Shown piece by piece: positions 3,286-61,552 of a DNA stretch of 61,575 nt (positions within the stretch are counted from its first letter, which is position 1; each line of letters opens with the position of its first letter). The stretch is taken from IMG/VR virus record IMGVR_UViG_3300000358_000010; one strand, written 5' to 3'. The notes under the pieces are model-generated. The model saw only the letters and a program-made list of their open reading frames with translations, did not search any database and was not told the DNA's origin. Made by a program: the position numbers and the translations under genes. The stretch is from a virus.

Positions 3286-4779
3286 TTAATCTATTTTCAG
3301 CATTCGCTTGTCATTCAATTTCTCGTAAAGTAACTTAGCAAATAATTCTAATTGTTCATTCATGTCTTTTTGATGGTCATACATTAAATTACCTATTGAG
3401 AATAATGGATCAAATTGTGTCGGTTCACAACCTTTGAACAAGATAGGGATAACAGCATGTTCTCCAAATCGTTCCTTAAATCTATCTGATTCAAAATTTG
3501 TCCAAAGTTTTTTAGGATAGTTCTTATCGACCAAAACTATTATATAATCTGCATCTGATTTATATATAGGCTCAAAATACTCGCTTAAATCTTCTCCTAA
3601 AATTCGATGCTGCTCATTATAATCATAAAAAACACTACAAGAGTACTTAAATTCCAATATATCGACTAATTTAGCCGCAATAGTCCGTACTTCTCCAGCA
3701 AAAGAGATTGCGAAATCATAGTTTTTTACAAAATCAACATTACTAAAACCTATTTTACTTGCAAATGTATCCCAGTTAATGTTTTGTAAATAGAAAATAA
3801 ACTTAGGATCCTCCACTGTTAAGGTTTTTGAATTATCATCATAATGAATAACAGATTGTATGTTATCATTAGAGCTAATCAATTTTACCAGATAGCCTTT
3901 TTCTACTACTTGAGAAATACTAGCCTTATGAGTTGGATGGGATAAATAAACATCACTCATTCGGATAGACCATTCTTGGGAATCAGAAAGCCACTTTAAA
4001 AGATGAAAATATGGTGCTCTTCCTCCACTGCGTAATCTGGTTCCAACAGCAAAATCTTTTGCTTTATCATCAAAAACCCGACTTAAATCTTTCATCAAGC
4101 CTTGAATTACATAATTAATATCAACATTAAGAGTTTTTAAAGAGTCCAGAGAGTTTAAAACCCCTTCTTGTATACATAATTCTTTGCAAATCATTTGTGC
4201 TATATGAAAGCTTCCATTAGCTTTCTTTACAATTTGTTGTTTACAAGAAATATCTACATTTAAGACTTTTTCTCCCTTAGATATTAAGTCCATTATCTTA
4301 TTTTCTGGATTTACCTCAAATTTAACGGTAGTTACTCGATTATTTAAATCTGGAGATATTTTTATTAAACTATCTCCTGCCCTGTTAATGCCGATCAGAA
4401 CCAACTTCATATCATCCCTTTCTTCATCAGCAATAACCTTCATTAAACTCGCTAATTTCTCTTTAGTTTCATTGGGCAATAAATGAAAATCATCTATGAT
4501 TGCTATATTATTGCAAGCATTATCATTTATAATATTATCAATTCGACTCCTATCGTTTAGTTTTCTTGCAGATAATAGTTCAACATTATCTTTATCAAAA
4601 TGCAACGACTCTAAAACTTTCAATACACATGTAGTTTTCCCAATTCCAGATGGACCTTCAACTATAAGGCATCTTCCTCTTGTTCTCAATGAAACAACAA
4701 TTTTTGAGTATTCATTGGGTTCAACAAATGTATATGTTGGTATCCCAGAATCTTTAAAAACTTCCTCTAAATTGACCAT
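3286..4779 (-). CDS. P-loop NTPase with a C-terminal TIR domain (497 aa); candidate defence effector
   Basis: Track ORF 3286..4914 trimmed to the internal ATG at 4779, because the upstream 45 codons read through an AT-rich promoter. Walker A is GPSGIGKTT and Walker B-like is IAIIDDFH. The C-terminal 130 aa or so fit the bacterial TIR pattern (YDFAISFAGE..VFYD..IIVLVD..WTNFE). Confidence 0.8.
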   Translation of the reverse strand: MVNLEEVFKDSGIPTYTFVEPNEYSKIVVSLRTRGRCLIVEGPSGIGKTTCVLKVLESLHFDKDNVELLSARKLNDRSRIDNIINDNACNNIAIIDDFHLLPNETKEKLASLMKVIADEERDDMKLVLIGINRAGDSLIKISPDLNNRVTTVKFEVNPENKIMDLISKGEKVLNVDISCKQQIVKKANGSFHIAQMICKELCIQEGVLNSLDSLKTLNVDINYVIQGLMKDLSRVFDDKAKDFAVGTRLRSGGRAPYFHLLKWLSDSQEWSIRMSDVYLSHPTHKASISQVVEKGYLVKLISSNDNIQSVIHYDDNSKTLTVEDPKFIFYLQNINWDTFASKIGFSNVDFVKNYDFAISFAGEVRTIAAKLVDILEFKYSCSVFYDYNEQHRILGEDLSEYFEPIYKSDADYIIVLVDKNYPKKLWTNFESDRFKERFGEHAVIPILFKGCEPTQFDPLFSIGNLMYDHQKDMNEQLELFAKLLYEKLNDKRMLKID

Positions 4780-4806
4780 AATCCAAAAATACAAATGGTA
4801 TATTAA

Positions 4807-4822
4807 TATATTTGCAAATATA
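4807..4822 (-). promoter_or_regulatory. Perfect 16-nt palindrome TATATTTGCAAATATA carrying a -7 box (TAnnTTTG) on both strands; probable ATPase-TIR promoter
   Basis: The minus-strand TATATTTG lies 36 nt upstream of the ATG at 4779. Confidence 0.6.
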
Positions 4823-4990
4823 AATAAATTATGATATATAACAAATAAATTTTTAATTAAAATTTTATCGTCAAGAATTAACAAAAAATAGCTTACTCCT
4901 TTTTTATACATCAATTGTCATGTAATTATCCTTTCACTAACATAGCCAATGCCGGACAATCCATTAAAGAAATATGGTTTTATTGTTTCT

Positions 4991-6423: not shown

Positions 6424-9400
6424 TCATATTTCATACAGTTTAGTAGGCATGTATCCGTTATATTCGGATAACGGGAAAATAATGGAAGCATAACCGGATA
6501 TTACACTGGATTTATAATCGCTTACAGCTGTATCAGGAACATATATGGCGACTACATTACCTAATCCGGCATACTCCAAGGTCGTAGGTGGAGTCGTAGA
6601 TTTAAAAATGACCGTCACAGAATTGCATCCGTTAAACATACGCGATCCTATAATATCAAGATTCCCCTCAAACACAACGGTCCTTATCTTTTTGCAGTTA
6701 GCGTAAGACTGAGAACCGGACTTTATTATGTTTACGGGAACACATGAAGCCGCTATCGGGGTATTCTGAAACATTTCATACGAAGTGCTGTTAACATAAC
6801 CTTTCAGTTCACCGAAATCACACTCTTCCAACGACACACAGTTTGAGAAAGAAAGTAAATTAAAGATTGTTGTCATTGAATCTTCCCCATATTCGAAAGA
6901 GTTGCACTTGAACCTTTTCAGTTTCGAACAATCGGAAAACCCTTTATTCATCGTATAGTGCCTTTCGGGAGGTATGATAAAGTCTTTCATCGTAAACTCC
7001 TCAAGCTCGGAACAATTATAAAAAGGCATATAATCACTCCCTCCTCCGGAAGATAAGAATGTGCAGGAATCCGGAAGATTCACTTTCTTTATCTTAGTTC
7101 CCATAAATGCACGTTGGTAGATCTGTTTAAGATTAGGGGGAAAGACAGCTGTTTCCAAATTGGTATTCTCAAAAGCCCCATATCCGATCTCCGTACAATT
7201 ACTCAGACTCTCAAACCCGACCAAGGAAGTGATATTCTTATAATTTTCATTTTTATCACCTGACAGAAAGTATCTTGGTATCGATGTAATCAAGTCGGCT
7301 TCATCCCGGGTTATTCCACCGTCACCGTTGACATCCCATAGCTCAAAGACTCTTTGAGCGACTATCTTATCGGTAAAACGAATAAAATACTTACCGATCA
7401 CATTCAGCTCTAACCTTTTAAAAGTTCCCCTCAAAGCCTGAATCGAATCCTCGTACGCATTCGCATACACATTTAAAGTACCGTCCAGCACCGGGTATTC
7501 ATCCTCACCGGCCACACCTTCGCTGTCAAGACCTACATACGAGCCATCCGCCAAAGCGGCCAGCTTATCCAGCATGTCGGAAGTGTTATACGTTTCATCA
7601 AAACCGACAGCACGGACACGCTTCAACGAATGTCCGGCGCCTTGTCCCTGCTGTGCGTCCATGATCTGTGTCAGGAGCTTGATAGGCTGCATAAGCGGGC
7701 AGTCTGAAATGAAAAAGTCAGTGATTACGGCTGCGCATTCATCTATCAAGACACCACTGTTCTTCATTAACGGATAGTTCTTAAGAACGAGGTAACGGGA
7801 CAAGGCGTTAAACTCTACCAGCTCCAATCCGCCGCCTGCCGGAAGACGAAGCTGGGTGATGGAAGTCCCGTCGATGTACACCTCCTTCAGGTGGCTGCAG
7901 GCGGTAAGGTTCAGAGTGCCCGCCAGCGTGGATATGCGTGAGAGCACAAGCTTCTGCAAGCTGACACAGTTGGAAAGTGTAAGCGACGAAATGGAAATCA
8001 CAATGCCGGCAGTCTTATGCCCAAGCCGGATCTCGCGTAGCATCTTACCCTGTACGATCATGGAACCGGTGACGTTCTTGTCGTGCCAGTCCCCGATATC
8101 CTGCAGGTAGCTTGCCGCCTGAATGGCGTTCTGCTGGTCACCCGTACCTCCCAATTCGATTTCCATATGACAGACCTCACCGGCTTTCGTCCGGGAGCCA
8201 CGGATGATACTCGTACCGTTGGCAATGGCAGGGTACATATCCATGGCCGGGGTGATGTCATAACCGATCGAGTTCCCGGCGGCACGTACTACGATGGTAT
8301 CCGTTCCATTGGCACTGAACAGGCCGAAACTATACTTCGACATCATGTACAGTATCCTCTTTGTTATCCACCGCTGTTCGGCGAGATAGTGATCTCCCAG
8401 TGATTGCGTGATAGGATCGGTATCGTTCGTGTACCGCCCGTCATTGTAAGCTATCTTACCGTTTTCGTAGCAATACTTCGCATCTGCGTTATAGGCGTTC
8501 TGAGGGAAGTATTCCTGCGCTACATCAAAGTAATACTTCTGGTAGAAAGCGTACAGTTTCTGTAAGTCGTTACCGGACTTCAACCCGCCTAATGTCTGCA
8601 TGGCTGTCATGGAACTTCGCATAGAAGCAATTTTCTCGTCCGGGAAAGCCAGTTCCATCAGGTTAAAGAAGTTATTTGTCTCACCGTTCCAGATAGCCGC
8701 CCCTGTTTCGTCCTTGTCATGTACCTCGACGCTGTATGACTTATCAGGCAATCCGCGGTTGGTGGTGTCGAAACGGGTGTCGGCATCATCCACACGCCAA
8801 CGCCATCGGCTGGTATCCGTTCCGAAGCTGTAGGGATAGGTATTTTTGGCACGTTCATCGGTACCGGCATTGAACTCGACGTTGTTCATGAAGAACAGAC
8901 AATCATTGATTTCCCAGTATTGCGGAGCGTCATTTCTGAACTTAGCTATACGGGAATTGATAAACAGTTCATTCAACTGGTCTGCCGTAAATGCGGACAG
9001 GTTTCCGGTATCCATGTAACCGGCCAGTTGCGTTTTCAAGTTTATGGTACCGTTCCCGATATCGGAAGCTATGAACTGACCGACGGAAGACTCGTAATAG
9101 TAGACATTATATTGGTTCACATCCCCGGCTTTCGCTATCCAGAACTCGTAGGGTTCGTTCTTGTAGGCGGAGGCCTGTCCGTTCAGTTCGGTCAACGTAC
9201 CGATGAACGGCTTCAACCGTGGAGAGCACTGGTAGACGCAATTGTATGCCGGGATGAACTTGGATATATTCTCCACTTCGCCTTCACCCAAATCGAAACA
9301 GTTCTGCCCGTTGTACTGATACGCCTCTTCGTCTTCATTGTAGGCTATCAATCCCCGTGCCGGATTCCAGGGGACACGGAACAGGGTGAGCAGCGGTGAG

Positions 9401-12021
9401 TTGTCAGAACCTTCAATGCTCAACAGGTTAGGATAAGTATCCGTATCATACCCGAACGTATCGGCATCCCCCTTATCAGGACCGAATGTGTACAGTCCGC
9501 GGAAAACGTATAGCGTTTCACCTTCCTCGTTGATCTGTTTTTCAAAACATACAAAAGGAGCTTCCCAAACTGAGACACGCACTTTCCCGTCGGCTTGCAT
9601 GGCTTCGTTCAGGATGCCAACCTCACGGATAAGGTCGGTATAGGAATTGACCGCACCGATCTTGTGGGATTGCATGGATGAAGCGTAGTTTTTCTTCGCT
9701 GTGAATTTACGCCCGGCAGGAAGATGGGGTGTCATCGCCCACTTCGCCCCCGCTGCGGAAGTTGTACCGTCCGCATAAGTGATGACAGACAGCTTCTTGT
9801 CGAGCTGGTAACGGGTATTCCAGATCCAGTATTTCATGGATGACGTACCTTGCCCCTTGGCCGTAACGTTATCGATAGATACGTTCCATTCAGGGTGCTC
9901 GTACCAGAACACCTCCAGCGTGCCTAACCGCTGAGTCTGGTCGGACATGGATGGGATGGTGTTGTCATACACCATCACATTCATCTGGTCTACGGTGTTG
10001 GCAAAGTCGATTTCCGAACCGTTGGAGTCAAGGATGTCATTGTAGGCTTTGGCAATCGCCTTGTCGGCACGCTCCACCAGCCAGTTGATGTAGTTTGTAA
10101 GTACACCGGCAGAGGTCAGACCGCTGTCATAGATGCGGATACCGTATACGTCAACGTCAGCATAGTCCGAGCCGATGGTTATCTTCCCGTCCTGCGCGAA
10201 GTAATCGTTGTTCTCATACGTGAACTCCCGGTTCTTAACGCCATTTACGTACAAGACGCACAGGTTGAAATCCTGATTCCCGTAAGCGTCCGGAATGATT
10301 GTCAATGTGAGCTTGGTACGCTTCTCCTCAAAAGTATGCAAACTCTGTACTTCATCATTGCGCTGCACTTGCGAGTGCATGATGATTTCGTCCGCATAGA
10401 TATTCAGGCCAATGAAATTGTCGCCGTTCGGAACGGACATGGTGATAAGCGGCTCCGTGTAATCAGTGACATTTGAAATCAAATAGTCAACCTCTATTGT
10501 CTTGCCTTTACGGGCCGCCTCCTTTTCAAATGGTTTGTAATCCACCGTCAGCAAACCGCCCGCCATGATACGAAGAACCTTGTTCCCGGCGCTGTCCGCT
10601 GTCCAGGCGTCATTGCCCCAGTTCATGCCTTCCCATGTACAGGGGATAGCCGTACCGGTTATCTCGTTGATGACAGACTGCCGGTTGGACTGCCCGTTGC
10701 TTCGGGTCTTCGGATTCATATAGAAAACCGCGCCGGCAACGGCGGAATAACCCAACGAGTTGTCCACCGGGATGACTACCGTACTGCCCAGTTGGCTGTA
10801 ACCGTCCATCACGGACACCTCGATGTTAAACTCCGAATTGTCCAAAGTGTCGATTTCCATCGGAATGGAAAAAGTATGTTTGGCCTGCGTGGTGATATTG
10901 TCCTCTTCAGAGGAATAGACCTGTTTCCCGTCCTTGTTCACGATAAATTCGGCGGAGGTATTTACTTCGTCACCGTTGTAGATCGAGTAATCAAACAGGG
11001 CATTCTCAGTCCAGTTTATAGCCTTTGACGTAACGTTGTTGATAGCGATCATCTTGACCGCTTCACCGGTAACGGCACACATCACATTAAAGGATACGAC
11101 TTTGGTGGCCACGCTGCCATCAACGGTACTGACGTATGCGGTAACCTTGAAAACACCCGTCTTTCCCGGATGGGGGATGGAATAGTTATAAGCGGTTTCG
11201 GTATAGATCTGCGTACCGATATTCTCATCGTATTCCCGGTTATATCCACTGCCAACCACTGTAACGTGCAATACTTTGTTCACATTACCACCTATGTAGA
11301 GCGGAAGCGTGATTGCCCCGGTATAGGCGGTCCACCACCGGAAGTTGCTCGCGTTGATGGTCAACGAGGTCAGGGTCACGGTCCATACGAACGCAGGGGT
11401 GGTGACTTCGGTCACTTCCCCGGTCACTTTTACCATGACGTTATTAGCACCCGATGTGAGGAACTCGGTCACGTCAACGGAAGTAATGCCGGTGGAGTTG
11501 ATATACATTTGCTTCTGAACAACATAGTCCCCATCACCGTTCTTTACCGAGACCTCACATAAGCCACGCTCGTTGGTGTTTTCGTAAGGGTCCAGTGCCG
11601 AGTAACGTTCCTGCGAGATGAACTTAAACTTGATGATACAAGGTTCGTCCTTGCTGGCCGAAAGTGTCTTCCCGTCCATTTCATTGACTACACGCACATA
11701 CCGCTGTACCACAGTCTGACCGCCGGTCGTGTTAAGCGGACCGCTGACTATCTCACCGTTCGCTTCCGCATACAGGTCAGTGCCCTCGATGAAGATATTG
11801 TCGATCTTCCGCGCCATTTCATCTTCCATTAGGCTCAAGGAACGCTTGAATGCGGTGATGGACTGGTTGATCTTCGTAATCTTATCCTGCAAGTCCTCCT
11901 CCCCGGAGGTGTCGTTCACCCCGTCCACCAGTTCGTTGATCTTGCTGACCATCTGGTTCAGTTCCGCCGCCTTCAACGAGTCGCCGGACGTGAACGTCTT
12001 TCTTAATTCGCTTACTGCCAT
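6424..12021 (-). CDS. Giant tail fibre / receptor-binding protein (1865 aa) with C-terminal BspA-type leucine-rich repeats
   Basis: N-terminal coiled coil and a beta-rich middle. CotH-like stretch (GQGTSSMKYW...SSMQSHK, tentative). Ca-loop WDVNGDGGITRDEA. C-terminal LRR_5-like repeats (SLSNCTEIGYGAFENTNLETAVFP...). Confidence 0.8.
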   Translation of the reverse strand: MAVSELRKTFTSGDSLKAAELNQMVSKINELVDGVNDTSGEEDLQDKITKINQSITAFKRSLSLMEDEMARKIDNIFIEGTDLYAEANGEIVSGPLNTTGGQTVVQRYVRVVNEMDGKTLSASKDEPCIIKFKFISQERYSALDPYENTNERGLCEVSVKNGDGDYVVQKQMYINSTGITSVDVTEFLTSGANNVMVKVTGEVTEVTTPAFVWTVTLTSLTINASNFRWWTAYTGAITLPLYIGGNVNKVLHVTVVGSGYNREYDENIGTQIYTETAYNYSIPHPGKTGVFKVTAYVSTVDGSVATKVVSFNVMCAVTGEAVKMIAINNVTSKAINWTENALFDYSIYNGDEVNTSAEFIVNKDGKQVYSSEEDNITTQAKHTFSIPMEIDTLDNSEFNIEVSVMDGYSQLGSTVVIPVDNSLGYSAVAGAVFYMNPKTRSNGQSNRQSVINEITGTAIPCTWEGMNWGNDAWTADSAGNKVLRIMAGGLLTVDYKPFEKEAARKGKTIEVDYLISNVTDYTEPLITMSVPNGDNFIGLNIYADEIIMHSQVQRNDEVQSLHTFEEKRTKLTLTIIPDAYGNQDFNLCVLYVNGVKNREFTYENNDYFAQDGKITIGSDYADVDVYGIRIYDSGLTSAGVLTNYINWLVERADKAIAKAYNDILDSNGSEIDFANTVDQMNVMVYDNTIPSMSDQTQRLGTLEVFWYEHPEWNVSIDNVTAKGQGTSSMKYWIWNTRYQLDKKLSVITYADGTTSAAGAKWAMTPHLPAGRKFTAKKNYASSMQSHKIGAVNSYTDLIREVGILNEAMQADGKVRVSVWEAPFVCFEKQINEEGETLYVFRGLYTFGPDKGDADTFGYDTDTYPNLLSIEGSDNSPLLTLFRVPWNPARGLIAYNEDEEAYQYNGQNCFDLGEGEVENISKFIPAYNCVYQCSPRLKPFIGTLTELNGQASAYKNEPYEFWIAKAGDVNQYNVYYYESSVGQFIASDIGNGTINLKTQLAGYMDTGNLSAFTADQLNELFINSRIAKFRNDAPQYWEINDCLFFMNNVEFNAGTDERAKNTYPYSFGTDTSRWRWRVDDADTRFDTTNRGLPDKSYSVEVHDKDETGAAIWNGETNNFFNLMELAFPDEKIASMRSSMTAMQTLGGLKSGNDLQKLYAFYQKYYFDVAQEYFPQNAYNADAKYCYENGKIAYNDGRYTNDTDPITQSLGDHYLAEQRWITKRILYMMSKYSFGLFSANGTDTIVVRAAGNSIGYDITPAMDMYPAIANGTSIIRGSRTKAGEVCHMEIELGGTGDQQNAIQAASYLQDIGDWHDKNVTGSMIVQGKMLREIRLGHKTAGIVISISSLTLSNCVSLQKLVLSRISTLAGTLNLTACSHLKEVYIDGTSITQLRLPAGGGLELVEFNALSRYLVLKNYPLMKNSGVLIDECAAVITDFFISDCPLMQPIKLLTQIMDAQQGQGAGHSLKRVRAVGFDETYNTSDMLDKLAALADGSYVGLDSEGVAGEDEYPVLDGTLNVYANAYEDSIQALRGTFKRLELNVIGKYFIRFTDKIVAQRVFELWDVNGDGGITRDEADLITSIPRYFLSGDKNENYKNITSLVGFESLSNCTEIGYGAFENTNLETAVFPPNLKQIYQRAFMGTKIKKVNLPDSCTFLSSGGGSDYMPFYNCSELEEFTMKDFIIPPERHYTMNKGFSDCSKLKRFKCNSFEYGEDSMTTIFNLLSFSNCVSLEECDFGELKGYVNSTSYEMFQNTPIAASCVPVNIIKSGSQSYANCKKIRTVVFEGNLDIIGSRMFNGCNSVTVIFKSTTPPTTLEYAGLGNVVAIYVPDTAVSDYKSSVISGYASIIFPLSEYNGYMPTKLYEI

Positions 12022-12932: not shown

Positions 12933-15900
12933 TTACAATGATATCTTATTATAGGACCATGACTTGCCACCCCATACACAGATAGCAAGGTGATTGTCCT
13001 CTTTTAACAGGTCCGATGTTGCACCACCATTCAATGTACTTCCGTTTGCATGAACAATAGGACCACGTCCTGTACCCGGCCATCTTTTGATTAAGTATAC
13101 TTTGCCGACCGGCGGATCTTTTGGTAGGTATACATTTTGATCACTTCCGGTGAAGCTGCATGATACAAAACAGTCTTCCAAGGTCAGATATCCTCCTGAT
13201 GCTATTGAACGTAATTTAACCGCAAATCCGGAGATACACCCGGTTAAAGCAAGCGCGATGTTATTTTCTTTCTCGGAGGCTCCGGTAGCGGAAAAACGAG
13301 CGGCAATACATTTATCCGCTGAACTGTTATTATTAATCCACAACGGGACATTCAACCCTAAAGCGGCAGGTGCGGTATTAATACCTAAACCGGCAGTAAT
13401 GCCATCCCCAGAAAACTGAATATTCTGGGTTGATATAGTCATTGGACCGGAAGCTAAAGAAGTACCGGATATTTTAAAGCCACCAATCATGGACTCTCCG
13501 GTAACTGTAAGGTAATTAGCTGTAATTCTATCAGCCGCCAAAGCATTTGCGACGATAGTTTGGGCATCAATCAAGTCCGTCCGGATATACCCGCCATTGA
13601 TGAGCGTGGTTCCCAGCATGGCCTTCTCAACCGCACTCTTATACGCCAAACTTCCTAATGTATTTGACAGGGCATCCACCTTTGATTGCGCTGTGGAAGC
13701 GGCACTGTTTATCGCGTCGGTCTTTGCCGTGTCAACATAGCCTGTCGTTGCTTTTCCGTTGATGGTACCTTGCAGGTCAGCGTTGAAGGAGTTGAAGGTG
13801 ACAGCCCCGGTTATATCCAGGTATTTGGACGCTATCTTTACAGAAGTTCCTTCAAACACCACCTTATCGGCTCTGATTGAGGCGTTGGAAATCAGATTAC
13901 CGGCCTGATCGGCCGTGATGAAAGTACTGATGTCAGCCTGCTTGACTATCTTTCCGTCAACGACCGCATTGGCGAACAGCGTGGCAAATGTTCCGTTCCC
14001 CGTTACCAGACCGGACGTGTTCTTCAACGTGCCGTCAGAGTTGAACCTTCCTGCCACCACAGAGATGCTGTCCCTGTTTTGCTTGATAGCCGTAGCATTT
14101 GTCTCACCGGTTGCCTTTGCGGCATCGGCTGTGACACCCGCAGCGTCAGCGGCTTTCTGGGCGACACTTATCAAACGCTTTGCTTCCGTATCGTTCGCTC
14201 CGACCGTCAACAGGATACTATCGCCAAGGTTTTTTATGTAAGCGGTTGTAGCATTACTGGCAGGGGTCCAGTGAGAAATTGAAAACGCTGCTCCGACTGC
14301 CTTGGCGGTCACGCATCTCAAGGTATCATTTGAATAGTTTACACCGCTACCCGAGTAGGTGGCGTTCACCCATAAATCGCCAATGTCATAAGCTTTCTCG
14401 TTCGTTGGTTGGGCTACGAATACCCTACGTTTTCCGTCTGCGGTGTCCTGGGCTTTGGCGGCATCTTCCAACGCCTTGACGGTCTGCTGGTCCGTTATAC
14501 TGTTCCAGCTATACGCCCCGTTCGCATTCTTTTCGAAACGGTAGGCCAGTCCGGAAGCCCGGTTGTAAAACATATCCTGCTCGTGTAGAGCCTTTAAAGC
14601 GTCCGTAGTCCATTCTACCGCCGGGATGTTGCTCAAAGTCGGTGCGTACTCAAAGAACCAGATTGTAAACTCTCTGTCCACCTGATCCTTAACGATGTCA
14701 AAGTCAGCCTTAAGGTCGGAAAACATATCATCATAGCTCTTGCCTGTAGCCTCAGAGATAAACTGACCGAGAAACTTGTTAAGGGTTGGCGACAGGATGG
14801 TTACCTCTTTATTACGTAGCGTGTACCCGTTGATACCCTTGTACTGCTTGATCGAAGGCGCGTCATCGCCCACAGTGGAGAGGATGATCGCGTTCTGACG
14901 TGTCGTGTCGGTTCGATTACCGATCTGCACGATTTCGTCACCGGCAGACGGTTCCATGCTGCCGATGTCACAGTCGGCTTTACTCAAGTCTATGTAATCA
15001 TCACCGACAGCCGTTACCAGTCTCCAGTAATAGATATTGGAAACATTATGTGACGTACCTTCCTGAACATTGAATGTTCTGCGACATGCCTGATCGCCTG
15101 CCACAAACTCTTGCCGGATGGACCTTTCCCCGTCATTTTGCTTAAAGTAACAGCGGTACACGTCAGCAAGTTCCTCTACTTTCGTACATTCCATGCTTGC
15201 CGGGGTAAGAATAATTTCACCGCCTACATGACGAAGCTGTTTGATGATAAGTTCTATGAAATAAGCCACTTTTCGAACAAGTAAATCATCCACTTCAAGG
15301 TAACTCCGTCCAGTCTTCTGATCATATTTCAATACGTATCCGTTACCCAGATCTCCACTCACGAAATCGGGAGACACGATACTGAAGACATTCTTCAGTT
15401 CGTCAAAGACGGCCGTTACCGCACCACTGTCACTGACACTGATGCCATGACCTTTTTTGCCGATAAGGAGACCTTTGAGGAAGGTGATTATTTCTTTCGC
15501 AGTGTCGACCTGATCCTTGCGAAGAAACATGGCCAGTAACCGCAAGGCAGAGAATGTATTACTATCCGTTGCGGGTGTAGAATCATTCCTTCTGATAAGA
15601 TACACACCGTTGCCAACCCCACCGGTATAAGTCTGCCCAGCAAGCGTTACGCTGTCTATCTTTTCTTCCAGTTCTCCGATGCGGGAATAAGCGGCTGTCT
15701 CACCTACGGTATATTCAGGTGAATCAAAAGGATAGTCAAGGTTGAACTCGAAACCTATGATACGTGATTGTCTTCCGTTCTCAAAGTAGGCCTTGTTGAT
15801 AAGGTTCACCTTCTGTCCCATGCCGTAAAGGTTATGAATACCATCTTCACGATATGCGTCATCGGACATCATCTTGCAGTTGTAGGTATTCGGGTCTATC

Positions 15901-32062: not shown

Positions 32063-32266
32063 ACCGTATGAATTATTAAATTTGAAATTCAATTTGCGGA
32101 AGTAAAAATACCACCAATACGGATGATTAATAAATATTTGAACTTCTGATTCGTGACCTTCGCTTTGATGTCACAAATGCGGTATAAAAGTAGTGAGTAA
32201 GTAGGTGGAAGGGAAATAATTAGGAAGTTAGAAAACCACAATTAGAGAATTGTGGAAAACGAGTAT

Positions 32267-32297
32267 AAAAAAAGCGTGATTCCACTTGGTCTCACGC
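32267..32297 (-). terminator. Intrinsic terminator after the DUF4062-like gene
   Basis: Stem GCGTGA/TCACGC followed by T7 on the minus strand. Confidence 0.7.
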
Positions 32298-32323
32298 CTA
32301 TAATAAATCATCTTTAGATATTT

Positions 32324-33325
32324 TTATTTCTTTATAGCCTTCAATTTAACCATCTCTGCACGTCCATACGGAGTTAAAGTACAGTAGGTATATACACCAT
32401 TCTCTATAACCTTATCAGTTTCTATAAGTCCTAAAGCTAAAAGCTGTATTTCAATTACCTCCTGATTCTTTTCATCAATAATATAATCCAGCTCACTAAT
32501 TCCCAATAATTTGTGTATAGGTTTAAATAAATAGTTTTGAATCTCAGTATAAGGAACAGGATTAAATAGCCCAGGAGCTATTGATAAAAATATTTCATTC
32601 CATGAAACATCCCTCTGAATATCATCTTTTTCTTCATATTCTTTATCATCCCCCCACGGAAAAGATGGACGTTTATGGAAAATTATATTATATGTATCAT
32701 TCCCCTGTTGAAAGTTCTCAGAACCAATAGGCGCTCGTAATGAAAGTCGATTAACTTGCTCTAGCAATTTCTCATTTTCCTTTTTCAGAAACAATATTTC
32801 CTTATTTGCTTCAGCCGAAGATATTGCATCTGCTTTCACCCAACCCACACGAGGAGAATTTTCAAATAAATAATCTAAACTTCTACTAACTTTGAACGCT
32901 AATTCATAAGGTTCCTTCCATGAATCACATAATTTTTCTTGAACATTTTTTAAAAATTCCCCTAGTTTTTGTTTTCCCACTTCCGTTGATTCAACTCTTT
33001 CTGCAGGCAATTTACTTGGTTCTGCATGATAAAATGAAGCAACAGGAATACCCCTGCTTATAGCATATTCAAATTCCAGTTGAGTGTAACTCTTCCCTGA
33101 CTTAGGTTCTATTGAGCCATAACGTCCTCCAATAATTAAAATATAATAATCACATCTATCTATTAATTTCTTGATAACTGTAAATTGGTCCTCATTAGCC
33201 GCAGGGAAATACTCCATTCCAACAGGAAAACAATTTTTGCCCAATAATGCTTCAATAACCTTTTGCCGTTCTTCAATTAAATCTTGATATGTTGAACTAA
33301 CAAATACTTGATATTTCTTTTCCAT
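32324..33325 (-). CDS. DUF4062-like (TIR / deoxyribosyltransferase-like fold) protein with an unknown C-terminal domain (333 aa)
   Basis: N-terminus YQVFVSSTYQDLIEERQKVIEAL...CDYYILIIGGRYGS...YTQLEFEYA matches the DUF4062 signature as I remember it. A coiled coil lies at about aa 170-195. Confidence 0.75.
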   Translation of the reverse strand: MEKKYQVFVSSTYQDLIEERQKVIEALLGKNCFPVGMEYFPAANEDQFTVIKKLIDRCDYYILIIGGRYGSIEPKSGKSYTQLEFEYAISRGIPVASFYHAEPSKLPAERVESTEVGKQKLGEFLKNVQEKLCDSWKEPYELAFKVSRSLDYLFENSPRVGWVKADAISSAEANKEILFLKKENEKLLEQVNRLSLRAPIGSENFQQGNDTYNIIFHKRPSFPWGDDKEYEEKDDIQRDVSWNEIFLSIAPGLFNPVPYTEIQNYLFKPIHKLLGISELDYIIDEKNQEVIEIQLLALGLIETDKVIENGVYTYCTLTPYGRAEMVKLKAIKK

Positions 33326-33343
33326 AGTAGTTTATCGCATTAT

Positions 33344-33736
33344 TTATAAAAGATTAATAGCAGCCAACTCTTTAGTCAAAGACTGAATACCTTTCTGAAT
33401 CTTCTCCAACTGCTGTTTGCGCGGTTTATGTACTCCGGCAGCATAATGCCATAACTGACGCTCATTGATTCCTGTAATCCGACTCAGAGCAGCTTTAGTA
33501 AAAATGTTGCTGTAGTAGTTGATAAAGGTAGCAGCATCAATTTTGAACTTTAATTCAAATTCCCCAGACAACACCTCGCAAGGATTAGTATTATCTTCCA
33601 GATACAACTCGATTGCTTCCTTCATATTATCTTCTAACTCTTTCATATCATTACCAACTGTAATGACGGGAGCACCTTCAATATAAGCACTCAGGTTCTT
33701 TCCTGCGTGTTCAACGATAACTTCTACTGTTTTCAT
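33344..33736 (-). CDS. hicB: HicB-family antitoxin (130 aa)
   Basis: HicB-like N-terminal fold pattern (VIVEHAGKNLSAYIEGAPVITVGNDMKELEDNMKEAIELYLED) plus a C-terminal HTH. Lies downstream of hicA. Confidence 0.8.
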   Translation of the reverse strand: MKTVEVIVEHAGKNLSAYIEGAPVITVGNDMKELEDNMKEAIELYLEDNTNPCEVLSGEFELKFKIDAATFINYYSNIFTKAALSRITGINERQLWHYAAGVHKPRKQQLEKIQKGIQSLTKELAAINLL

Positions 33737-33769
33737 ATTACCTCCTTTTAAATTAAGAGAACAAGGGGG

Positions 33770-33958
33770 CTACTTTAGCCCCGCTTGCCTCAAAATGCTG
33801 TAATAAGTGCCTTTCTCAACGCCTTTGCTGTTATGATTCGGTACGATAACTACTTTACCGTCTTTTTCAAACTTCATGTGGCTACCTCTCTGACTCTTTA
33901 GAACAAAGCCGTTTTCTTGCAACATAGTTACAACGTCTTTTACTGATTTGTAACTCAT
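33770..33958 (-). CDS. hicA: HicA-family mRNA interferase toxin (62 aa)
   Basis: LQENGFVLKSQRGSHMKF... is the typical HicA/YcfA pattern. Confidence 0.85.
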   Translation of the reverse strand: MSYKSVKDVVTMLQENGFVLKSQRGSHMKFEKDGKVVIVPNHNSKGVEKGTYYSILRQAGLK

Positions 33959-33982
33959 AACGCTTTGGACTTAATTACCATG

Positions 33983-33990
33983 CAAATATA
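33983..33990 (-). promoter_or_regulatory. -7 box (reverse complement TATATTTG) for the hicA operon
   Basis: Lies 25 nt upstream of the hicA ATG. Confidence 0.6.
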
Positions 33991-34126
33991 GTAATAATAT
34001 GAATACTAACAAATAATTTATTCATTATTTTACTATGAATAAAAAAATAGCGGCAACTCTGAAGAATCACCGCTAAAGGTCCTATTTTTCATGTACCCGA
34101 ATTATAAGCCCCATATTTTTTCTGAC

Positions 34127-55085: not shown

Positions 55086-55112
55086 AAAACTTATTGTTTA
55101 ATTAATGATTTG

Positions 55113-55194
55113 TGGATGGTAGAGGAGTCGAACCTCTCTCAATCATGCCAATTGGTTGCGCAACACGAAGCTCTAACCGATAAGCTAACCATCC
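55113..55194 (-). tRNA. tRNA-like gene with canonical acceptor, D and T arms but a 16-nt anticodon loop (non-canonical or pseudo-tRNA)
   Basis: Minus strand: GGATGGT-TA-GCTT/ATCGGTTA/GAGC-T-TCGTG[TTGCGCAACCAATTGG]CATGA-TTGAG-AGAGG/TTCGACT/CCTCT-ACCATCC-A. No 5-bp stem with a 7-nt loop can be drawn. Confidence 0.5.
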
Positions 55195-56620: not shown

Positions 56621-56694
56621 ATATCGCTAAATATCGCAATAAAATATTGCTATATTGACAATATTTAACATTATGAATAAGATTAATATCGCAA
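56621..56694. promoter_or_regulatory. Operator candidates: three ATATCGC copies, including a 2x AATATCGCAA direct repeat
   Basis: ATATCGC at 56621, 56631 and 56686. AATATCGCAA at 56630..56639 and 56685..56694. The third site lies inside the repressor's 5' end. Confidence 0.5.
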
Positions 56695-57371
56695 GTTTAA
56701 GGAAGTCTCTGAGACTAAGGCAAAAGGATTTTGGTGAAAAAATTGGTATCAAACAAGCCTATTTGTCAGAAATAGAAAGTGGCAAAAAGCCTCTTACAGA
56801 GGAATTATATAATAATATTATAGAAGTATTTGGCATGGATAAAGTTTCTGAACACTTTATCAGCACGAATGATAGCGATATTATCGCAAATAAAAATACA
56901 AACGAAGCAGTACCTTTAAATCAGAACTTTATAATAAATGTACCTCTCGTGAACCAATACGCACAAGCCGGATATATATGCGGCTTCCAAGATGCTGCAT
57001 ACATAGCTACACTACCTACTATACCATTCATTATTGACCATGAAGCAAAAGGAAACTATGTAGCCTTTGAGGTCAGAGGAGACAGTATGAATGATGGAAC
57101 AGAAGAAAGCTATCTTGAAGGAGATAGGCTTCTTTGTAGAGAAATAGCTCCCTATCTATGGGCAGAGTCTAAATTGCATATTCGGAAATGGGATTTCGTT
57201 ATTGTACATGAAGGCGGAATTTTGGTAAAACGAATAATAGATCATAATGTAGAAAATCATACTATCACAATACACTCTTTGAATGACATGTATCCTGACA
57301 GAGTTATTGATTTGGCAGAAGTTAAACAAATCTTCAATGTGATAGAATTGCAAAGGCCAAGAAGGAGGTAG
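56673..57371 (+). CDS. cI/LexA-like repressor (XRE HTH plus S24 peptidase, 232 aa)
   Basis: Trimmed to the ATG at 56673. HTH is LRQKDFGEKIGIKQAYLSEIESGKK. S24 motifs are RGDSMNDG and ILVKRII. Confidence 0.85.
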   Translation: MNKINIASLRKSLRLRQKDFGEKIGIKQAYLSEIESGKKPLTEELYNNIIEVFGMDKVSEHFISTNDSDIIANKNTNEAVPLNQNFIINVPLVNQYAQAGYICGFQDAAYIATLPTIPFIIDHEAKGNYVAFEVRGDSMNDGTEESYLEGDRLLCREIAPYLWAESKLHIRKWDFVIVHEGGILVKRIIDHNVENHTITIHSLNDMYPDRVIDLAEVKQIFNVIELQRPRRR

Positions 57372-57455: not shown

Positions 57456-58496
57456 ATGGAAGATATAACTTCAGAACTCAATGAGCAAAAAAGAAAAGTA
57501 GATTTTAATTCTTACGATATGAGTGTAAAGGAATTAATATCTATGGTAAATGATGGACTTATTGACATAGCCCCTGAATACCAAAGACAATTCAGATGGG
57601 ACACATTTAGGCAATCAACTCTTATTGAGTCTATTTTCTTGGGTATTCCAGTGCCTTCTTTGTTCATGGCAACCAATCCAGACGGCACATGGGAAGTGAT
57701 AGATGGGGTACAAAGACTTAGTTCCATCATTAATTTCGCTGCAGAAAAAGACTCTTCAGCAAGAAAGAAAATTAAAAAAGAAACTCCATTACAACTTTGC
57801 GAACTGAAGAAAATGAAGTCTTTTAATGGAAAGGATTTCAAAAGCTTACCGCGTTCATTACAAATTGACTTTTTGCTAAAACCGTTAAAAATAACAACAT
57901 TAAGTGACAAAAGTGACAAATCCATAAGATTTGACCTATTTGAAAGATTAAACACCGGAGGCATAAAATTATCAGACCAAGAGATTAGAAGCTGTATTTT
58001 CAGAGGTCAATTTAATGATTTTTTAAAAAGACTATCCTTAAATAACAATTTCAGAAAGGTTGTAAAACTTTCTAAAGGTGCAGAAAATGATGGGACAAGA
58101 GAAGAACTGATTCTTCGTTTCTTTTCATGTTTGAATAATAAAAGTTCCTTTGATCATAGTGTTGTTGACTTTCTGAACGATTACATGAATGATTCTTGCA
58201 GGAATTTTAATTATGAAATAAATGAGCGTATATTTAATAATGTGTTTACTCAATTATCCGGTTTAAGCCATGGCATAGTAAAAAGCAGAACAAGCACCAT
58301 AACTTCAGTTGTTCTTTTTGAAGCTGTTTCTGTTGGAGCCGCAGAGGCTTTGAAAGAAAAAGACTCCATTAACATTTCAGCCTTTTACGATTGGGTAACA
58401 GATAAAGACTTTAATAAATTAATCACTGGAGCTACAAACTCAAAACCTAAACTCCTTGCAAGAATAAAATTTTGTAGAAGCAAATTTTTAGAATAA
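57456..58496 (+). CDS. DUF262 (ParB/GmrSD N-terminal-like) protein (346 aa)
   Basis: DIAPEYQRQFRWDTFRQSTLIESIFLGIPVPSLF...VIDGVQRLSSI fits the DUF262 pattern. No DUF1524/HNH tail is present. Confidence 0.8.
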   Translation: MEDITSELNEQKRKVDFNSYDMSVKELISMVNDGLIDIAPEYQRQFRWDTFRQSTLIESIFLGIPVPSLFMATNPDGTWEVIDGVQRLSSIINFAAEKDSSARKKIKKETPLQLCELKKMKSFNGKDFKSLPRSLQIDFLLKPLKITTLSDKSDKSIRFDLFERLNTGGIKLSDQEIRSCIFRGQFNDFLKRLSLNNNFRKVVKLSKGAENDGTREELILRFFSCLNNKSSFDHSVVDFLNDYMNDSCRNFNYEINERIFNNVFTQLSGLSHGIVKSRTSTITSVVLFEAVSVGAAEALKEKDSINISAFYDWVTDKDFNKLITGATNSKPKLLARIKFCRSKFLE

Positions 58497-60096: not shown

Positions 60097-60118
60097 AGCC
60101 GGGGATCACTCCCCGGCT
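60097..60118 (+). terminator. Intrinsic terminator embedded in the integrase 3' coding end
   Basis: Stem AGCCGGGGA/TCCCCGGCT with a 4-nt loop, followed by TTTTT. Confidence 0.75.
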
Positions 60119-61380
60119 TTTTCTTCGTCCTTCTTTTTTGGATGGAACACAAAATCAATTACCTTCCGATTTGCCTTATCAATCCTGCTCCAGTCCTTTT
60201 TAACATAAGTATCTGTGACATTATACCCAGACTTATGATTCAATGACATTGCTACATCATCCATCGAAATACCGCAGTCGTTCCTTGCTATTGTAGCCCA
60301 AGAGTGGCGCGCAGCATAAAGAGTTAAATCGGGAATACCTAAAGCAATCCCTATCTTTTTCAGATTAAGATTCACCTTATGCACAAATTGCTTATGGCTC
60401 GCATATCTTATAAAGAAATTAAACGCTCTATCCCCTACTGAATCCTTATATCTTTCCAAATAAGGCTCAAGCTCCGGTTCTACTTTAATGGAAATAAAAG
60501 CCCTATCATCCCGCCTGGTTCTTGTCTTCCTCCGCTCGTACTCAAATCTATCATCAACAGGAGGATTCAAATAAAACATATCAACGGTATTCATTCCAAC
60601 CATAAAGAACGACATCAGAAACACATCTCTGGCAATAATGACACCCAACATATTTTCCGGTATTCGATACTCTTTTATAGCTCTTATCTGTTCATCCGTT
60701 AAAGAACGCTTTCTTGTAATCGGTTGCTTTGGAATTTTGTATTTAGCAAAGGGATTATTGGAAATGCGGATTATTCCGACATCTTCATCGTTATATTCAA
60801 GCTTTGCCCGATTAAATAACGCTTGTATCTTCGACATATAAAGCCGAACCCCAGAATCAGAAATATTTCCAATACCACATTTTGACCGTTGACTCTTTAA
60901 ATCTTCTTCGAATTTAATTAAGAGAGAAGATGTGATATCCGAGAAACATAAATTTCGATTTCCCACGAATGCCTCAAACTTGCTAATAGCAATTCGATAA
61001 TTTTCCCCTATCCGCCTACCTTCTTTCAAAACCTTATCCGCATAAGCATAACCAAAGTCGAAGAAGTTAATTCCTTCAGGCTTATTAGAAAGTTTATCTT
61101 TCATCAGTTCACATAATCCTTTAGCAGAATACAAATCAATAGAGTGACCCAATTTTGAAAGTTCGGCTCTAATTTTAAGAACATCGAGCATTACTTGGTC
61201 ATAAATCGGATTATTCCTTTCTTTTAGCTCAAAAGTCTTCTTGTTTATCAACTCACTTCCCACATAGTGAGTGGTCGCAATATATGAAGATTGACGTTCG
61301 TGCGTAATCCGTATCTTCACATTCCAGGTATTATCTTCTCGCCTTTGATGCTTGAGGATGATTATTTTAACTGTAGCCAT
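60106..61380 (-). CDS. int: Tyrosine integrase (425 aa)
   Basis: Trimmed to the ATG at 61380 (MATVKIIILKHQRRED). C-terminal motifs are AARHSWAT and LNHKSGYNVTDTYV. Confidence 0.9.
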   Translation of the reverse strand: MATVKIIILKHQRREDNTWNVKIRITHERQSSYIATTHYVGSELINKKTFELKERNNPIYDQVMLDVLKIRAELSKLGHSIDLYSAKGLCELMKDKLSNKPEGINFFDFGYAYADKVLKEGRRIGENYRIAISKFEAFVGNRNLCFSDITSSLLIKFEEDLKSQRSKCGIGNISDSGVRLYMSKIQALFNRAKLEYNDEDVGIIRISNNPFAKYKIPKQPITRKRSLTDEQIRAIKEYRIPENMLGVIIARDVFLMSFFMVGMNTVDMFYLNPPVDDRFEYERRKTRTRRDDRAFISIKVEPELEPYLERYKDSVGDRAFNFFIRYASHKQFVHKVNLNLKKIGIALGIPDLTLYAARHSWATIARNDCGISMDDVAMSLNHKSGYNVTDTYVKKDWSRIDKANRKVIDFVFHPKKKDEEKAGE

Positions 61381-61435
61381 CGTTGTAAAACATTTAATCG
61401 TGCATTCCTGTTTTTCGTAAAACGTTCGTAAAACA

Positions 61436-61481
61436 ATTGCGCAAAGATAGCAAATTAATTTAGATATGCTATCTTTGCGCA
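61436..61481. promoter_or_regulatory. Perfect 16-bp inverted repeat TTGCGCAAAGATAGCA / TGCTATCTTTGCGCAA with a -7 box (TATCTTTG) on each strand; integrase promoter/operator
   Basis: Arms at 61436..61451 and 61466..61481 with a 14-nt AT spacer. The minus-strand box lies about 60 nt upstream of the int ATG. Confidence 0.65.
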
Positions 61482-61552
61482 ATACAAAGAGAAACAGTTA
61501 ATTACATCTAAAAAGCTATAGCTTAAGTAGTTCTCTATACAGTTTTTGCACC

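Follow-up and report, generated by a model that had tools for sequence, protein, structure and literature searches.

A HicAB toxin–antitoxin pair and a Swarozyc homologue in a cargo hotspot of a Bacteroidales prophage head operon

When three genes follow one another in the same direction inside the head operon of a phage, do they form one system or several? The question is raised by a stretch of viral DNA of 61,575 nucleotides (IMG/VR record IMGVR_UViG_3300000358_000010), which was analysed at full length and is referred to here as the window. A toxin–antitoxin (TA) pair, hicA and hicB, is followed there by a gene for a 333-residue protein with a DUF4062 domain, designated swz. All three genes lie on the minus strand between the portal and scaffold genes. 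An earlier note on this DNA read them as a self-contained defence cassette and knew of no named system that coupled such partners. The individual genes are largely as that note described them, and the cassette as a whole is read differently here: it probably consists of a HicAB pair and a Swarozyc-type prophage defence NADase (NAD+-hydrolysing enzyme), placed as independent modules at a common hotspot.

The 333-residue protein is, on sequence criteria, a full-length Swarozyc homologue. Its N-terminal part matches DUF4062 (PF13271, 107.7 bits against a cutoff of 24.7, residues 6–88). A phmmer search of the PDB aligned residues 2–330 with residues 3–321 of the 326-residue chain of the Klebsiella pneumoniae protein KpSwz (10wc/11cq/11cv; E 3.5e-55), BLASTP gave 36% identity to KpSwz over 331 columns, and phrog_15411 matches the window protein over its full length (E 1.5e-110). 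The AlphaFold2 (AF2) model has a mean predicted local distance difference test score (pLDDT) of 83.8 and comprises an alpha/beta domain, a long helix at residues 171–194 and a mixed alpha/beta C-terminal domain. Within the latter, the AUX domain, most 10-residue blocks score 83–96 and three others 75–77; the block 221–230 scores 55 and forms the tip of a hairpin with strands at residues 211–218 and 236–241. Structural neighbours of the N-terminal half found by Foldseek include plant TIRs, SPARTA TIR-APAZ, SARM1, DNPH1 and the CMP N-glycosidase BcmB. The PDB copy used by Foldseek (cut-off April 2026) predates the release of KpSwz, whose AUX domain has an HTH/winged-helix core, and the likeness of the AUX domains rests on sequence comparison with a newer PDB copy, in which the alignment runs through residues 201–330. 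Neither PADLOC (2023) nor NCBIfam matched any of the three cassette proteins; both libraries predate the family. The DUF4062 signature, the TIR/deoxyribosyltransferase-like fold and the role of a defence gene, all proposed in the earlier note, are thus upheld by the domain match, by the Foldseek neighbours and by full-length homology to KpSwz, respectively. The coiled coil and C-terminal domain that it described are also present, as a stalk and a domain of about 130 residues. That domain is homologous to the KpSwz AUX domain, however, and is not uncharacterized as had been supposed.

Three preprints of 2026 describe DUF4062 as a TIR-like NADase in anti-phage defence (10.64898/2026.05.01.722283; 10.64898/2026.06.25.731849; 10.64898/2026.09.04.749371). 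Swarozyc, reported by Osinski et al., is the best match to the window protein: KpSwz acts as a single-gene abortive infection system composed of DUF4062, a helical stalk and AUX (10.64898/2026.05.01.722283). The KpSwz AUX domain binds the portal ring of the phage, which switches on NAD+ hydrolysis; W238 and Y239 anchor a hairpin in the portal, and KpSwz alone protects E. coli (10.64898/2026.05.01.722283). Both proteins belong to the same length class (333 residues in the window, about 340 in KpSwz) and share the three-part architecture, with collinearity over window residues 2–330. Common to both are the catalytic glutamate (E84 in the window protein, E97 in KpSwz), the helix of the stalk and the core of AUX; at the anchor position, W224 is aligned with W238. 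KpSwz comes from an enterobacterial defence island, whereas the window gene lies in a phage head operon directly after the carrier's own portal gene and is probably transcribed behind a TA module. A further difference is that Tyr239 of KpSwz is a glycine in the window protein and that the hairpin is hypervariable among phage-borne alleles.

The remaining relatives are more distant. Evangelion Eva01, described by Ibarra-Chavez et al. on pMW2-type resistance plasmids of S. aureus, joins a DUF4062 core to a variable AUX domain, and phages that escape it are mutated in genes for recombination and replication rather than in that for the portal (10.64898/2026.06.25.731849). Its core is 38% identical to window residues 4–165 and the essential motifs are kept (F11 as F8, E87 as E84, W162 as W162), although Y88 is replaced by phenylalanine at window position 85. 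These residues are close to invariant among 86 Swz homologues, on which all the conservation figures given below are based: E84 and F8 occur in all 86 and W162 in 84. Like Swz, Eva01 is encoded by one gene, borne by a mobile element and frequently with TA genes in the vicinity. In contrast, no similarity is detectable between the C-terminal AUX domains; the staphylococcal plasmid protein WP_054192782 aligns to residues 4–165 only. Since Eva01-type proteins match this segment alone, the window protein belongs to the Swarozyc lineage and not to that of Eva01. The NIR/DUF4062 systems Avs2-NIR, Vulcan and Vesta of Le Mouellic et al. use the same NADase effector domain with its catalytic glutamate, and cause abortive infection through NAD+ depletion (10.64898/2026.09.04.749371). 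Their STAND-TPR, HEAT-repeat or small-ligand sensor modules, or phosphatase partner, are absent from the window cassette. On the S. aureus plasmid NZ_CP120015 (locus L231, 1179..2457), a type I Fst toxin gene precedes the Eva01-type DUF4062 gene by about 200 nt, a further case of a DUF4062 defence gene adjoining a TA element.

The two genes upstream of swz form, by homology, a canonical type II TA pair, for which toxicity and its neutralization are predicted. HicA matches HicA_toxin (PF07927, 63.8 bits; cutoff 27) as well as phrog_353 ('toxin'), and its RGSH motif contains the conserved histidine H27, in agreement with the 62-residue protein with a GSH motif of the earlier description. HicB by itself gave no direct match in sequence searches of Pfam, NCBIfam, PADLOC, PHROG or PDB. 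An exhaustive search collected 638 relatives, and a profile built on 55 diverse ones matches the solved HicB antitoxins 4p78 (HicB3, E 1.6e-5), 6g1c and 6g1n. PF15919 (HicB_lk_antitox) is found in 22 of the 55 and HTH_3 in 14, and close homologues bear the NCBI label 'antitoxin HicB'. The AF2 model (pLDDT 96) combines a beta-beta-beta-alpha-beta N-terminal domain with a C-terminal one that is helical; the structures closest to it are TTHA1013, the putative antitoxin 3k6q, HicB3 and phage repressors including P22 c2. The helix-turn-helix (HTH) attributed to this 130-residue protein from the start is therefore well founded in the profile, the family matches and the model. HicAB modules have been reported in prophages of Porphyromonas gingivalis (PMC10367356). 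The window pair resembles known type II modules in gene order, in its small HicA with a catalytic histidine, in the HicB fold joined to an HTH, and in being borne, as they are, by siphovirus prophages of Bacteroidota. Nothing material sets it apart, the window HicB belonging to a divergent subfamily that falls below the Pfam and NCBIfam thresholds in direct searches. HicA would act as a ribosome-independent mRNA interferase, which HicB would neutralize while probably repressing the promoter through its HTH domain. The genes are separated by 33 nt, and a strong RNA hairpin without a following T-run spans the hicA stop codon; it could affect translation of hicA and hicB or processing of their mRNA.

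These genes occupy a cargo hotspot. The window represents a temperate prophage of Bacteroidales: it encodes an integrase (60106..61482) and an HTH-S24 (CI-like) repressor (56655..57371), and chromosomal contigs of 1.3–3.2 Mb carry integrated elements homologous to it. Profile searches identified TerL and an SPP1-type portal upstream of the cassette; downstream are a scaffold-like protein (phrog_5824), a head-fibre-like protein and the major head protein. The cassette is framed transcriptionally, since the portal gene ends in an intrinsic terminator and the cassette has a terminator of its own. The hairpin of the latter (32299..32272) was passed over by the automatic terminator scan because of its long loop and was picked up by the energy calculation. 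Promoter, hicA, hicB, the 333-residue gene and terminator are all found where the earlier note placed them, and the flanking genes and two terminators agree with its view of a moron-like, self-framed unit inside the head operon. In the closest cultured phage, Bacteroides phage BS-TP2 (L001, PQ571275), the corresponding gap (7557..10717) is without swz and contains an HNH endonuclease, small regulators and a HigB/HTH pair, which confirms the portal–scaffold site as a variable cargo hotspot. The window copy of the gap holds two independent modules in the same direction, hicAB and swz.

The independence of the two modules emerges from surveys of related loci. Counts in these surveys are of loci, not of independent events, with near-duplicate contigs included and crude open reading frame (ORF) calling in the genomic loci. 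A sample of 54 viral loci was anchored on swz homologues. About 45 of them have swz in the portal–scaffold gap, including cases with a portal of only 23% identity, and hicAB stands beside it in few. Loci without hicAB have another TA pair directly upstream of swz, either HigB/HigA (PF09907 and HTH_3) or Gp49/XRE with a truncated HigA behind it. Some arrangements are stacked or decayed, for example HigBA followed by HicB without HicA. A TA-derived gene ends 5–63 nt upstream of every phage-borne swz except at loci L057 and L071, where an unannotated 163-residue ORF intervenes. The pairing of alleles is loose. One locus (L011) carries a hicAB 100% identical to that of the window next to a swz product of 51% identity, and an identical Swz protein (P0025) follows either HicAB or HigBA, depending on the contig. 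Other loci have hicAB without swz (L002; L151–L162), and in MT838647 hicAB is followed by dnaB.

A second sample served as a control and was anchored on the portal gene. It contains 80 loci, 55 of which reach the scaffold gene and count. The portal–scaffold gap holds a TA pair in 51 of these 55 related phages and swz in 2. Because a TA pair occupies the site in 51 of 55 regardless of swz, its presence beside swz is what location predicts. The constant position of a TA upstream of phage-borne swz had been considered as a new TA–Swz coupling, and this candidate was rejected on the portal-anchored control and the map of insertions and deletions (indels) described below. Throughout the phage family (L151–L230, L003–L073) a TA is nearly universal in the gap, with HigBA, HicAB and Gp49–XRE swapped, stacked or decayed; the decayed forms include N-terminal remnants of HigA and HicB without HicA. 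Related prophages at L064 and L066 carry a second HicA with a partner of 134–146 residues just upstream of the tape-measure gene (13634..14279), a site that looks like a second TA hotspot of the phage family.

Comparison with a hicAB-only phage delimits the swz module. Locus L151, with a portal 97% identical to that of the window, matches the window as far as 33345, the hicB stop codon, and again from 32222; the 292 nt that L151 has between these points contain the remnant of a HigA and a terminator of their own. As the match holds on both sides, swz and its terminator constitute a discrete module, inserted exactly at the antitoxin stop codon. The last 10 or so nucleotides of the spacer accompany swz in every TA context (junctions at 16 loci). 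Judged from these loci, hicAB and swz are two separately mobile modules in a common hotspot, and a three-gene system is accordingly unsupported. The coordinates of all features are given in table 1.

Table 1. Features of the portal–scaffold gap of the window, in window coordinates.
Feature	Position	Strand	Details
portal-gene intrinsic terminator	34075..34048	-	upstream cassette boundary; 12-pair stem, then T-run; dG -16.1 kcal/mol, z -4.4
imperfect inverted repeat, 18 nt	33988..34036		candidate HicB (HTH) operator; arms 33988-34005 and 34019-34036, 83% complementary
Bacteroides-type promoter	34013..33983	-	-33 TTTG 34013..34010; 19-nt spacer; -7 TATATTTG 33990..33983
hicA	33958..33770	-	HicA mRNA-interferase toxin, 62 aa; PF07927, phrog_353
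RNA hairpin across hicA stop codon	33757..33791	-	dG -21.3 kcal/mol, z -4.1; no T-run after
hicB	33736..33344	-	antitoxin, 130 aa; N-terminal HicB fold, C-terminal XRE-type HTH
swz module (indel unit)	33344..32223	-	spacer, swz and terminator; from L151 comparison
hicB-swz spacer, 18 nt	33343..33326	-	last ~10 nt ('gataaactact') kept before swz ATG
swz	33325..32324	-	Swarozyc homologue, 333 aa; DUF4062/NIR NADase, stalk, AUX sensor
TIR-like NADase domain	32846..33325	-	residues 1-160; PF13271; Foldseek TIR, DNPH1, BcmB
catalytic Glu codon	33076..33074	-	E84; E97A position of KpSwz construct, Eva01 E87
stalk/coiled coil	32744..32815	-	residues 171-194, single long helix; AF2; collinear with KpSwz stalk
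AUX sensor domain	32327..32725	-	residues 201-333; KpSwz alignment runs through
hypervariable beta-hairpin	32603..32692	-	residues 212-241; W224 equivalent to KpSwz W238; variation among 86 homologues
cassette intrinsic terminator	32299..32265	-	hairpin 32299..32272 and U7; dG -13.5 kcal/mol, z -3.2

Two modules that are separately mobile may still share regulation. The coding strand between 32200 and 34300 has a single full match to TAnnTTTG/TTTG, which we take to be the Bacteroides promoter consensus, and this match lies upstream of hicA; the -7 box proposed there at the outset is borne out, with TTTG 19 nt upstream of TATATTTG. No terminator was found at the hicB–swz junction. One promoter consensus, the open junction, the conserved 10 or so nucleotides and an insertion point at the stop codon together suggest that transcripts started at the TA promoter run on into swz, so that swz is probably co-transcribed with hicAB. 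Whether the arrangement goes further has to be weighed. The modules may be mechanistically independent while swz depends on the TA promoter for its regulation, and such a shared promoter as a regulatory convenience is a tenable proposal, with the odds somewhat against it. Autoregulation by HicB, HigA or XRE proteins would then hold the NADase at a low and buffered level in lysogens, and loss of the labile antitoxin under stress or on infection would raise Swz. The sole promoter consensus upstream of hicA and the absence of a terminator before swz speak for this dependence, as do the inverted repeat at the promoter, which has the -33 box between its arms and extends into the -7 box (in AT-rich DNA, so that its significance is uncertain), the tight spacing of swz behind a gene that is nearly always an HTH antitoxin or its remnant, and the start of the indel exactly at the antitoxin stop codon. 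Against it, L014 and L057 have a HigA N-terminal remnant lacking the HTH or the unrelated 163-residue ORF at this place, the arrangement thus persisting without an intact antitoxin; weak promoters off the strict consensus may exist; and hotspot position alone accounts for the adjacency.

What, then, would Swz do for its carrier? By analogy with KpSwz, its role is most likely that of a prophage-encoded abortive infection defence, or of superinfection exclusion, by NAD+ depletion. Swz would be expressed in the lysogen, where its oligomer is expected to remain autoinhibited. Once a portal ring is built by a superinfecting phage, the AUX domain would bind the ring through the variable beta-hairpin and the NADase would be switched on. 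The infected cell would then abort the infection, and the lysogen population would be protected.

The segment on which such recognition would depend is the most changeable of the protein. Mean pairwise identity is 65% in the NADase domain, 44% in the AUX domain and 24% in the hairpin at residues 212–241, which is aligned with the portal-binding hairpin of KpSwz, varies in length and occurs in 78 distinct versions among the 86 sequences. This variability would fit diversifying selection on trigger recognition, as expected of a sensor in an arms race. Co-adaptation of the sensor to the resident portal was considered and rejected: AUX identity follows that of the portal (Spearman 0.17) no better than that of TerL (0.15) or the scaffold (0.10), and in 18 pairs portals at least 95% identical accompany AUX domains less than 60% identical. 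With a Spearman value of 0.17 between AUX and portal, nothing points to an adjustment of the sensor to the portal of its carrier. A comparison of that portal with coliphage portals, among them the one that triggers KpSwz, gave no detectable similarity.

Several points weigh against a reading of the cassette as a TA pair beside a Swarozyc-type defence. NADase activity and trigger are extrapolated from an enterobacterial homologue of 36% identity that is known from preprints. The anchor W238–Y239 of KpSwz corresponds to W224–G225 in the window protein, in a column that is variable and has tryptophan in 3 of the 86 homologues; since the anchor position is not conserved in the family, the trigger may differ. 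It does vary among relatives, with recombination and replication functions reported for Eva01 (10.64898/2026.06.25.731849) and a small lambda protein for Vulcan (10.64898/2026.09.04.749371). Self-activation would in addition be a problem for a portal sensor whose gene adjoins that of the carrier's own portal, and the alleles give no sign of tuning against self. Lastly, PADLOC-DB 2023 has no model for Swz, and the locus samples hold near-duplicates.

These points lead to the alternative that Swz is a Swarozyc-fold NADase with an AUX domain that responds to some signal besides portals, for example a different virion protein, a replication protein or a nucleic-acid structure. Conservation within Swz is lowest in the hairpin aligned to the KpSwz anchor, and the tyrosine of the anchor is absent; AUX alleles are unrelated to the resident portal; and other DUF4062 systems respond to different triggers, Eva01 to recombination functions, Avs2 to the terminase and Vulcan to lambdap79. 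Set against this, homology to the KpSwz AUX domain extends from end to end of the window AUX domain and takes in the conserved core around W242 and residues 291–300, and an arms race with portals would itself yield a hypervariable contact loop. A non-portal trigger is less likely than not, with a portal as the preferred candidate.

A much weaker case can be made for a single three-component defence system, in which, for example, the NADase would be armed by HicA or HicB on detection of an infection, or would itself exert its effect by way of the TA. The common direction of the genes, the 18-nt spacer, the lack of a hicB–swz terminator, the single promoter consensus and the TA-derived gene close upstream of almost every phage-borne swz would all be expected of such a unit. 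However, TA pairs are not enriched by swz, three unrelated TA families and truncated antitoxin remnants stand at the same position, TA type and swz allele assort independently, and swz is a clean indel relative to hicAB-only phages. Outside this phage family, the genome collection yielded 376 Swz relatives; the best 80 are 34–60% identical, nearly all of them along the entire protein, and include some archaeal proteins besides those of many bacterial phyla. The 84 ORFs lying nearest upstream of swz at 77 non-phage loci include one PIN, one RelB and one HTH_3, without any TA family being found repeatedly, and the Swz homologue of Alistipes putredinis has no upstream TA. KpSwz, moreover, is sufficient alone (10.64898/2026.05.01.722283). 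The coupling of the three genes envisaged in the earlier note therefore finds no support, in view of the frequency of TA pairs at the site (51 of 55 loci, swz being present in 2 of the 55), the interchangeability of TA families and the separate indel; elsewhere, too, the genes are largely unlinked, hicAB occurring without swz and swz lacking hicAB in most loci. A three-component system is very improbable. Least credible of all is a service of swz to the phage itself, as a portal-associated head-assembly or ejected protein (in the position of SPP1 gp7) or a host-takeover NADase: its place next behind the portal gene, seen in some 45 of the 54 loci anchored on swz, divergent portals included, and the portal binding of KpSwz are outweighed by its presence in 2 of 55 close phages, which makes it dispensable for morphogenesis, by its own terminator and moron-type promoter context, by the mostly chromosomal, non-phage distribution of the family over many phyla, and by the shuffling of swz alleles relative to the portal.

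Chromosomal relatives of swz show a recurring neighbour of another kind. In Alistipes and Prevotellaceae an ORF of 344–346 residues begins 28–33 nt downstream of swz (L059–L062, 8006..9046; L074, about 33 nt). It has no Pfam or PADLOC match, and could be a partner gene of this chromosomal sub-lineage. The window prophage itself carries further genes of a defence type. A GmrSD_N/DUF262-type protein of 346 residues (57456..58496, plus strand) has NsnA (2.9e-65) and PD-T4-2_A (1.9e-50) as its best PADLOC matches; lying between the CI-like repressor and the integrase, it represents a second defence-type moron. A third defence-like gene is found near the tail-fibre end (3286..4914, minus strand) and encodes a STAND/AAA NTPase of 542 residues with a C-terminal TIR_2 domain, matching the PADLOC candidate PDC-S59 (8e-20). 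ARAGORN also reports a tRNA-like gene at 55112..55194 (minus strand), with no identity assigned and a 4-base anticodon (tgcg).

HicAB in Bacteroidota prophages (PMC10367356) and the Swarozyc family were already known; the leads that follow from their meeting at one site are useful, and no new kind of system is involved. The tight operonic adjacency of swz to a TA reflects a near-universal TA hotspot and not a new multi-gene system. HicA is mentioned in none of the three preprints (10.64898/2026.05.01.722283; 10.64898/2026.06.25.731849; 10.64898/2026.09.04.749371), and the Swarozyc (10.64898/2026.05.01.722283) and Evangelion (10.64898/2026.06.25.731849) papers contain no term beginning with Bacteroid. 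What goes beyond them is the portal-adjacent location in the head operon of Bacteroidales phages, the TA-swapping hotspot and the hypervariable hairpin of natural alleles. Swarozyc, a named and structurally solved defence protein, is thereby placed in gut Bacteroidales prophages, where it had not been reported before. A bolder combination of these elements is speculative and rather doubtful as a whole: temperate Bacteroidales phages would wield Swarozyc against other phages, the hairpin would set the range of foreign portals recognized, the carrier would evade its own sensor, and the TA module would act as an expression platform. Escape from self may be achieved by an invisible portal surface, by timing through the TA-controlled moron promoter or by an inhibitor, and defence cargo such as swz may repeatedly be grafted onto the platform at the antitoxin stop codon. 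With swz beside the portal gene of its own carrier, these prophages provide a natural system for self/non-self discrimination by a portal sensor, and their natural hairpin variants on near-identical backbones a panel for the mapping of specificity.

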